From the NCBI RefSeq assembly GCF_001677475.2, contig NZ_CP015229.1: 64,000 bases of DNA; one strand, given 5' to 3'. The number at the start of each line of letters is the position of its first letter. Positions within the stretch are counted from its first letter, which is position 1. Shown in pieces: positions 29,529 to 31,073 of the stretch. Below the pieces are notes generated by a model. It was not told where the DNA came from. It saw only the letters and a program-made list of their open reading frames with translations, and searched no databases. Source of the DNA: Escherichia coli. GTDB taxonomy: Bacteria > Pseudomonadota > Gammaproteobacteria > Enterobacterales > Enterobacteriaceae. The position numbers and the translations under genes are program-made.

Positions 29529-30362
29529 GTGACTGAATTAACCAAAGAGCAATTAATCGAAGAAGCCAAATTAAAAATAGCGATTGCGAAATGCTACCCC
29601 AGTTCAGGGATGGCACGGGTAGAGGGCGAGTTATTCAAAATTGCACTGGCATCGCTGGAAGCAGAACCAATAGGTGCTTTCCACATTGTAGAACAGCAAG
29701 TTGACGGAACAAGTTACTATATCAAGGATGGGGAATGGCCTATTGATACTGGGATTATTGAAGTCTACGCCGCCTCACCGATGACGGTAGTGCTGAACGA
29801 TGTATCTGGACCTCTTGCTCTTGCTTACAAAGAGCTTACACCTGCGATTATGCGCAACCATATCGCTGTATTCGAACGATACGGAATAACCCCAAACGAT
29901 AGCATTACTACAATTCATGCGCTTCGAATTGCGCTGGATGGCATAGAGCGGAGCGACGCCATGCTTCATGGACGTCAGCCATGCCATCAAATTACCGCCT
30001 CAATGGCAAAAGCTATTGCGCTTAAACTTGGTGCCGAACTGAATAACGAAGAAGCAGAGATTTTCGCGGATGGGTATAACACCGCCATGCTTCATGCCGA
30101 AAACTTTCGGGAAAATAAGAATTCGTCAACCAATAATTTTCGGATAACCTCGGAAACGTCAACCAACTCTCCGGCAATCCCTGATGAGGTGTTGTCCGCA
30201 ATCCTGAAGGTCGCCAGGCTTCGTGCAGATTTCGATGCTTCTGAAGGTGACAGGCGAGGTATCGGTGGTTGTCTGGATGAGGCCGAGCAAGAACTTATCG
30301 TTACCATTAACAAATACGCCAGTCAGATCGCAGTAGAAGCGATACAGGGGGCGCACCAATGA
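29529..30362 (+). CDS. Hypothetical nin-region protein (277 aa)
   Basis: ORF only. Confidence 0.35.
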   Translation: MTELTKEQLIEEAKLKIAIAKCYPSSGMARVEGELFKIALASLEAEPIGAFHIVEQQVDGTSYYIKDGEWPIDTGIIEVYAASPMTVVLNDVSGPLALAYKELTPAIMRNHIAVFERYGITPNDSITTIHALRIALDGIERSDAMLHGRQPCHQITASMAKAIALKLGAELNNEEAEIFADGYNTAMLHAENFRENKNSSTNNFRITSETSTNSPAIPDEVLSAILKVARLRADFDASEGDRRGIGGCLDEAEQELIVTINKYASQIAVEAIQGAHQ

Positions 30363-30470
30363 GCCGGCCCGATGCATTTGCAGGCGTTGCTATAGCTATT
30401 GCTTTTCCAGTATATGTTATTTGTCGGTGGGGGTAAAAACGTTCGCCGGAATTCACACCAAGGGAGGGAA

Positions 30471-30575
30471 TATGTCGGATGATATTTCACTGGTAATGGA
30501 AGGCGCTCTGGCTGTTATTGCTGTTGTGGGTGTTTACTGCCTGGTTGTGTTTTTGATGGATCGCCTGGGGAACTG
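30471..30575 (+). CDS. Putative small hydrophobic peptide (34 aa)
   Basis: Hand translation: MSDDISLVMEGALAVIAVVGVYCLVVFLMDRLGN, single TM-like peptide; not in ORF track (<60 aa). Confidence 0.3.
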
Positions 30576-30763
30576 AATTCATTCCGTATGGGAATTCCCA
30601 TATCGGGCAAAAACGGTTTGCTGTAAAGCGAGAGTTAAGTAGAATTGCTGCGGGTGCTTGAGGCTATCTGCCTCGGGCATGCCGCCGTAAGGCAGACAGA
30701 GAAAAGCCCCAGTTAACATTACGCGTCCTGCAAGACGCTTAACATTAATCTGAGGCCATATCT

Positions 30764-30976
30764 ATGACTTGCACACGTAGGTTAGCCTCTTACGTGCCGA
30801 AAGGCAAGGAGAAGCAGGCTATGAAGCAGCAAAAGGCGATGTTAATCGCCCTGATCGTCATCTGTTTAACCGTTATAGTGACGGCACTGGTAACGAGGAA
30901 AGACCTCTGCGAGGTACGAATCCGAACCGGCCAGACGGAGGTCGCTGTCTTCACAGCTTACGAACCTGAGGAGTAA
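30764..30976 (+). CDS. mok: Mok-like in-frame N-terminal extension reading frame of the hok toxin gene
   Basis: 70-aa ORF MTCTRRLASYVPKGKEKQAMKQQK... containing the hok frame, as recalled for chromosomal mokC/hokC. Confidence 0.5.
   Translation: MTCTRRLASYVPKGKEKQAMKQQKAMLIALIVICLTVIVTALVTRKDLCEVRIRTGQTEVAVFTAYEPEE
30821..30976 (+). CDS. hok: Hok/Gef-family type I toxin
   Basis: MKQQKAMLIALIVICLTVIVTALVTRKDLCEVRIRTGQTEVAVFTAYEPEE, near-identical in pattern to recalled Gef/HokC. Confidence 0.8.
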   Translation: MKQQKAMLIALIVICLTVIVTALVTRKDLCEVRIRTGQTEVAVFTAYEPEE

Positions 30977-31044
30977 GAGACCTGGCGGGGGAGAAATCCC
31001 TCGCCACCTCTGATGTGTCAGGCTTCCTCAACGCACCCGCACTT

Positions 31045-31073
31045 AACCCGCTTCGGCGGGTTTTGTTTTTTCT
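31045..31073 (+). terminator. Rho-independent terminator downstream of hok
   Basis: Seen in sequence: hairpin CCCGCTTCGGCGGG followed by T-run. Confidence 0.45.

Follow-up and report, generated by a model that had tools for sequence, protein, structure and literature searches.

Does the 34-codon open reading frame (ORF) that precedes hok in an Escherichia coli prophage encode a protein, and if so, of what kind? The DNA analysed here, called the window, is a stretch of 64,000 nucleotides. The original prediction, made from its letters, described an unannotated hydrophobic peptide, too small for ORF calling and of a size typical of type I toxins or small membrane regulators, which might be an overlooked small protein. 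We consider it likely that the ORF is a real, catalogued small membrane-protein gene of lambda-like E. coli prophages, whose product would be a non-toxic accessory.

The reading frame and its surroundings

The window is a lambdoid (Rac/Qin-like) prophage. On the + strand, a YdaS/Cro-like gene, a YdaT-like gene, and genes for a replication-initiator-like HTH protein and DUF977 lie 5′ of the ORF, and DUF968, RusA, and antiterminator Q lie 3′ of it. From these flanking genes, the ORF belongs to the early-right 'nin' region, with the replication genes on one side and Q on the other. The features near the ORF, with their positions in the window and their strand, are as follows.

30359..30436, + strand: family-1 ORF, 25 codons (MSRPDAFAGVAIAIAFPVYVICRWG), hydrophobic; its ATG overlaps the stop of an upstream 277-aa ORF (ATGA)
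30431..30441, no strand: left copy of a direct repeat, GGGTAAAAACG (11 nt), flanking a 174-bp segment with the ORF and the palindrome
30460..30468, + strand: Shine-Dalgarno (SD) sequence AAGGGAGGG, core GGAGG at 30463-30467, 4-nt spacer to the ATG; read directly
30472..30576, + strand: 34-codon ORF with its stop, for a hydrophobic, predicted single-helix peptide identical to WP_001278459.1; sequence read directly
30584..30606, no strand: palindrome CCGTATGGGAATTCCCATATCGG, perfect core at 30587-30602, between the ORF stop and the hok promoter
30605..30615, no strand: right copy of the direct repeat, GGGCAAAAACG (11 nt)
30618..30645, + strand: putative hok promoter, −35-like TTGCTG and −10 TAGAAT (30640-30645), placed relative to the Rfam hok mRNA 5′ end
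30652..30826, + strand: hok mRNA leader and sok target; Rfam RF01794, 110.6 bits, E=2.2e-25
30764..30976, + strand: mok (70 aa) with hok nested in it (51 aa, ATG 30821); PF01848 (HOK_GEF), E=2.9e-23
31045..31072, + strand: intrinsic terminator, 3′ end of the hok mRNA

The + strand product, MSDDISLVMEGALAVIAVVGVYCLVVFLMDRLGN, is read from ATG at 30472-30474 through 33 more codons to TGA at 30574-30576. The peptide was quoted correctly in the original prediction; the coordinates given with it, 30471-30575, were one base too low at both ends. In a mechanical ORF list, the same frame is open upstream as far as TTG 30421 (51 aa). We took ATG 30472 rather than this TTG as the start because the spacing of AAGGGAGGG points to the ATG, and the start assigned by PGAP agrees.

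Very short ORFs are common, and 69 of at least 20 aa were found within 3.5 kb around the 34-codon ORF, so that it might be a chance open frame in a spacer carried along with hok, with gene callers and ribosome footprints both misleading. Against this, the combination of its features was unique: among the ATG and GTG starts on both strands of the 64-kb window, only that of the 34-codon ORF had GGAGG at −4 to −14, an ORF of 20-60 aa, and a 19-residue Kyte-Doolittle window of at least 2.5. Mononucleotide shuffles had a mean of 0.01 such ORFs. By the uniqueness of this combination and by the shuffles, the ORF is more than a chance occurrence, and the conservation described below bears on the same question.

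The position upstream of hok was confirmed, with the HOK_GEF match and the Rfam leader both lying downstream. The gene pair is annotated as hokD or mokC in matching genomes. A promoter equivalent to that of hok in the window, TTGGCG-17-TAGAAT, was detected by a promoter scan in phage Tritos. The ORF lies outside the canonical hok mRNA, since it is 5′ of the −35 and −10 hexamers and the mRNA 5′ end (30652) is 76 nt past its stop (30576). At the other end of the transcript, a weak Rfam match to the Salmonella sRNA IsrK (30985-31066, + strand; 26.7 bits against a gathering score of 50) coincides with the hok mRNA 3′ end and its terminator, and is therefore probably the terminator hairpin.

No convincing + strand promoter was found upstream of the 34-codon ORF by the promoter scan. 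The ORF is preceded instead by the small family-1 ORF, which itself overlaps the stop of the upstream gene. Family-1 is a second family of small peptides ('...VY[SV]ICRWG', for example MTWPEAFTTVGIAMAVALVVYSICRWG). Its 27-aa relatives were intact in 49 of 54 copies, with 30 synonymous and 32 non-synonymous variants (P=1e-4). A family-1 ORF was just 5′ of the 34-codon ORF in 24 of 24 counted loci, and in 933W-type phages it is directly 5′ of the hok promoter. The copy in the window has an L-to-P change that is absent from all other fetched loci. PGAP annotates no family-1 ORF in L001 or L002, two of the fetched loci. In database searches, the peptide had a match below threshold to KdpF (E=0.024). 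A grouping of family-1 with DUF551 proteins proved on inspection to be a clustering artefact, with no shared sequence. Within the family-1 ORF, a minus-strand promoter-like sequence, TTTACC-17-TATACT (30437..30409, 9/12), was not above the shuffle expectation; a transcript from it would run antisense to family-1 and away from the 34-codon ORF.

The two copies of the direct repeat bracket the ORF and the palindrome. Phage 933W lacks the 174-bp segment; ...TAAAAACGGTTTGC and the hok promoter come straight after its family-1 ORF, and a single repeat copy, ...TAAAAACGG..., joins that ORF to the promoter. The 34-codon ORF therefore looks like an inserted cassette. The palindrome, or a near-identical one, was also found 5′ of hok in contigs without the ORF. 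It could be an element in its own right, for example an operator, a hairpin, or a recombination junction.

Annotation, distribution, and published translation

The ORF had been described as unannotated and below ORF-calling thresholds, and neither description held. PGAP calls a 34-aa CDS in every listed carrier genome, under the name hypothetical protein (WP_001278459.1 and WP_001278460.1; ECs_5710 in strain Sakai). Among the matches listed, 60 of 60 had a 'hypothetical protein' under the ORF. The exact 34-aa sequence was on at least 1000 contigs in a protein collection look-up, always with this name.

These database entries and XECs145, the Sakai gene described below, are the same 34-aa gene at 97-100% identity. 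The WP_001278459.1 CDS of strain 90-3040 matches the 34 residues of the window at 100% identity. Its cluster lies in lambdoid prophages between a DUF551-type gene and hokD/mokC, immediately 5′ of the latter, which is also the place of the window copy. WP_001278460.1, the O157:H7 copy, differs by one residue, D30E, and ECs_5710 (YP_009502606.1) of the O157:H7 Sakai prophage Sp6 by another, V8A. Apart from these two sites (V8 and D30 in the window, A8 in Sp6, E30 in WP_001278460.1), there is no difference of substance.

The genomes carrying the ORF were counted by megablast of 30340-30660 and by blastn with only the ORF as query, both against 5,426 complete E. coli genomes. The ORF DNA was present in 673 of them, at 1,467 places; a single genome had as many as 5 copies, and the carriers were chiefly STEC serotypes.

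Ribosome profiling, proposed in the original prediction as a check, has already been published for a near-identical copy. The Sakai Sp6 copy is listed by Hücker et al. 2017 as the translated small gene XECs145 (PMC5597208, supplementary tables). In uninduced Sakai grown in LB, XECs145 had an RNA RPKM of 79.1, a footprint RPKM of 346.1, a ribosome coverage value (RCV) of 4.35, and a coverage of 0.99; the RIBOseq reads are not assignable to one locus because Sakai carries several near-identical copies. The corresponding RNA RPKM, footprint RPKM, and RCV, under the same multicopy mapping, were 121.3, 150.1, and 1.14 in BHI, and 73.3, 1.1, and 0.01 under cold/osmotic stress (PMC5597208). The product was predicted there to be in the inner membrane with 1 TM segment. 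The frame scored was an N-terminally extended one of 162 nt, beginning 5′ of the SD-ATG start (PMC5597208). In the main texts of the literature, the accession numbers, locus tags, and peptide strings were not found, and the sole match was this supplementary table. The peptide was absent from the supplements of the EDL933 translatome (PMC4765031).

The 34-codon gene is thus already catalogued, and was reported as translated in 2017. Both RefSeq and a published ribosome-profiling catalogue list it, so that it has not been overlooked, and the finding as first stated carries little weight. What stood of that claim was that this is a real small-protein gene. Its conserved reading frame and SD sequence, its excess of synonymous changes, the published footprints, and the helix predicted by AlphaFold2 all speak for this.

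Conservation and a 29-codon homologue

Among deposited phages, tblastn detected a frame of 50-57% identity at the corresponding position of Tritos, Evi, mEp460_ev081, and HannyBb. We refer to the 34-codon form as type A and to this second form as type B. Type B is a 29-codon ORF with a GTG start and the peptide (M)LVLKCALAIAAVMAIYCLAVVLMDRLSD; besides these four phages, it is in many Qin-like or lambdoid prophages. It has its own SD sequence, AGGAGG, 5 nt 5′ of the GTG, and its upstream DNA is otherwise unrelated to that of type A. Its stop is homologous to the type A stop; the hok −35 is about 10 nt beyond it, with no terminator between. Type B DNA was present in 1,895-2,509 of the 5,426 complete E. 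coli genomes, with no feature annotated by PGAP under the match.

The two types share 16 of 29 residues (55% at the amino acid level, 67% at the nucleotide level), including the motif YCL...LMDRL. Differences between them at codon positions 1, 2, and 3 numbered 11, 4, and 13, so that position 2 was best kept; it is the T that specifies V, I, L, F, or M. Like type A, type B is on the same strand as hok, directly 5′ of its promoter, and encodes a predicted single hydrophobic helix. Unlike type A, it starts with GTG, has K5 in place of the acidic MSDDIS N-terminus, and adjoins neither a family-1 ORF nor the palindrome. A candidate promoter, TTGAA[TG]-17-CATATT, was 37 nt 5′ of the type B start in 95 of 107 loci, with the hexamers kept and the spacer differing. 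It matches 8 of 12 consensus positions, and the promoter scan made no call there. No comparable site was found 5′ of the type A ORF by the promoter scan.

For the analysis of selection, loci were retrieved by DNA similarity or by a hok promoter/leader anchor, not by the peptide; the IMG/VR loci retrieved by a codon-degenerate pattern (L007-L126) were left out. All 23 copies of type A were intact, with 11 synonymous and 8 non-synonymous variant alleles (P=0.004; expected synonymous fraction 0.27), and the two shifted frames had 2/17 each. For type B, 14 of 14 copies were intact, with 14 synonymous and 15 non-synonymous variants (P=0.008), and the shifted-frame controls gave 6/22 and 7/21. The non-synonymous changes were conservative: V/A, I/V, D/E, and L/M. 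Conservation of the frame in related prophages, the other check proposed in the original prediction, was thus seen in intact copies, a synonymous excess, and a conserved SD sequence. Judged from these substitution patterns, the small ORF evolves under purifying selection in both its 34-aa and its 29-aa form. The selection is only moderate, with pN/pS at 0.17-0.33, and part of the conservation at the 3′ end could be owed to the adjoining hok promoter module.

These results bear on the chance open frame raised above. Its copies would not be expected to stay intact, to show the synonymous excess in this frame only, or to have a divergent homologue with an SD sequence of its own and the same stop position, and the ribosome coverage on the ORF also argues against it. 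The confinement of the family to Escherichia prophages is in its favor. We consider a chance frame highly improbable.

The gene is dispensable, since frameshifts were found in about 3 of 127 type B copies (all fetched loci) and recombinant loci keep the last codons only. In some IMG/VR hok loci, only the last codons of type B (…ATGGATCACCTTTCTGATTGA, encoding MDHLSD*) or of type A (…GGTGAACTGA) remained, fused to unrelated upstream DNA. Survival of the last codons alone places mosaic recombination junctions inside the ORF or at its end.

The family is, as far as sequence searches tell, restricted to Escherichia prophages. A codon-degenerate DNA pattern searched in 100,044 species genomes matched E. 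albertii, as the one named species representative, and two MAG contigs; the pattern is strict, so that divergent relatives elsewhere could be missed. An all-against-representatives search of 1.84 billion cluster representatives gave seven close variants, of E. coli type only.

Nature and possible role of the product

The original prediction of a hydrophobic peptide with a single TM-like segment agrees with the computed properties of the product. The 34-aa peptide has a GRAVY of 1.40, and its best 19-residue Kyte-Doolittle window, at residues 11-29, scores 2.72. AlphaFold2, run with the family alignment, predicted one helix at residues 2-33 with a mean pLDDT of 90.9. The N-terminus is acidic (D3, D4, E10), and the peptide ends in a short conserved tail, LM(D/E)RLGN. 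Sequence searches of Pfam, PHROGs, NCBIfam, and the PDB with the 34-aa peptide gave nothing above noise; a match to SecE (E=0.083) was below threshold.

The size and hydrophobicity of the peptide, its single predicted helix, and the presence of another type I toxin gene, hok, next to it might suggest an unrecognised type I toxin, that is, a membrane-damaging peptide silenced by an antisense RNA; type I toxins were one of the two classes named in the original prediction. However, in simple scans the ORF had no Rfam match, nothing resembling a promoter was seen on the minus strand over it or beside it, and the predicted RNA fold of 30440-30655 was no better than that of shuffled sequences (z=0.02). 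Because the region has no unusual RNA structure, its strong SD sequence is not obviously sequestered. To our knowledge, a basic or polar C-terminal tail is typical of Ldr, Fst, and TisB-type toxins, and the 34-aa peptide has none. In addition, the published profiles point to efficient translation in healthy growing lysogens (RCV of 4.35 in LB, with high coverage also in BHI), and genomes carry up to 5 copies. We therefore regard a type I toxin as very unlikely. The related explanation of the ORF region as a structured RNA was rejected on the same fold and on the lack of an Rfam match over 30440-30600.

Comparison with Hok itself leads in the same direction. Like Hok/Gef (PF01848), the 34-aa peptide is predicted to be a small inner-membrane peptide with Cys in the hydrophobic segment, and it is encoded next to hok. 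Unlike Hok/Gef, it lacks a periplasmic domain, a mok-type overlapping frame, a sok-type antisense RNA, and the fbi/tac RNA architecture; the Rfam hok/sok model matched only 30652-30826 within the locus. No Pfam family, HOK_GEF included, matched the peptide at E<=1. A profile-profile comparison with Hok (hhalign) gave a probability of 0.6%, which has little weight because the Hok alignment was provisional; the Pfam test is the valid one.

A second alternative is that translation of the ORF modulates hok/sok expression in cis and that the peptide itself is irrelevant. Read-through transcripts or transcripts from an upstream promoter could act through promoter occlusion, Rho termination, or the folding of a 5′-extended hok mRNA. 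The ORF is immediately 5′ of the hok promoter on the same strand, and a longer read-through transcript covering it is possible. For type B, the short distance from its stop to the hok −35, the lack of a terminator between them, and the candidate promoter in 95 of 107 loci are also in favor of such an action. That promoter, however, agrees with the consensus at only 8 of 12 positions and went uncalled in the scan, and 76 nt separate the end of the type A ORF from the hok mRNA 5′ end. Moreover, the synonymous excess was in the correct frame only, codon position 2 was least variable, the substitutions were conservative, and YCL...LMDRL was kept between forms that are 67% identical in DNA. This constraint at the amino acid level suggests that the product matters and is hard to reconcile with a role in cis only, which we consider very unlikely.

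The explanation we prefer is that of a non-toxic accessory protein, which would be expressed in the lysogen and co-inherited with hok/sok. As modelled, the 34-residue product would form one continuous helix whose hydrophobic core, residues 11-29, would span the inner membrane. AcrZ, MgtS, MgrB, CydX, and KdpF are small membrane proteins of E. coli that modulate larger membrane proteins. Like them, the peptide is shorter than 50 aa, has a single predicted TM helix and a strong translation start of its own, and is expressed in normal growth. Unlike them, it is prophage-borne and multicopy and has no sequence relationship to them beyond matches below threshold. By analogy with such characterised bacterial small membrane proteins, it would most likely bind a larger membrane protein and so act within the membrane. 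The role of a small membrane regulator, which was also part of the original prediction, is thus possible, and the peptide may be called a putative regulator. Because it is inherited as one block with hok/sok, Hok-related membrane physiology would be the most economical target, although we offer such a role as a speculative extension of low probability.

The linkage to hok was strict. A Hok protein-motif regex was positive downstream of 98 of the 107 IMG/VR peptide-pattern loci with enough downstream DNA. Four of the nine misses were inspected, and all four kept the hok promoter and leader; two had an intact hok and two a disrupted one. In annotated genomes, the order of the small ORF and hokD persists while both flanks vary, with DUF551, the retron Ec67 reverse transcriptase (RT), or an ABC-three-component/DUF2326 system on the left, and HTH + ImmA/IrrE, DUF968, YgiW, Doc, or rem on the right. 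The converse does not hold, as 933W-type hokW and many other hok loci lack the ORF. This linkage, the tandem second family of small peptides, and the widespread unannotated type B are modestly new points.

One further reading is that the 34-aa and 29-aa peptides are one family that serves as a functional third component of prophage hok/sok modules, in the form of a membrane-embedded modulator of Hok, an immunity factor, or a product of an alternative 5′-extended hok transcript. It would explain why the family was never found away from the hok promoter, though we hold it to be doubtful. If it were true, it would matter that about one third or more of E. coli genomes have type B without annotation.

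What gives the locus its interest is that a conserved, well-translated, multicopy peptide, predicted to be in the membrane, adjoins hok/sok in prophages of Shiga-toxigenic E. coli. In Sp5, hok/sok has been shown to influence lysis timing and the release of phage (PMC8621323). Should the peptide modulate Hok or membrane integrity, a protein component would be added to a textbook RNA-controlled toxin system. Annotation updates could include type B and the family-1 'ICRWG' peptides, which are conserved but for the most part lack annotation.

Two observations concern individual type B loci. In three of them (L004, 1501-1590; L226, 4001-4131; L227, 3001-3127), type B lies between hokD and variable defence-type cargo, such as the retron Ec67 RT or the ABC-three-component/DUF2326 system; from this, the peptide-hok unit looks like the boundary of a cargo hotspot. 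In phage HannyBb (L003, 1408-1697), two minus-strand hypothetical CDSs were deposited over the type B locus. These are probably miscalls, because the substitution pattern supports the + strand frame.
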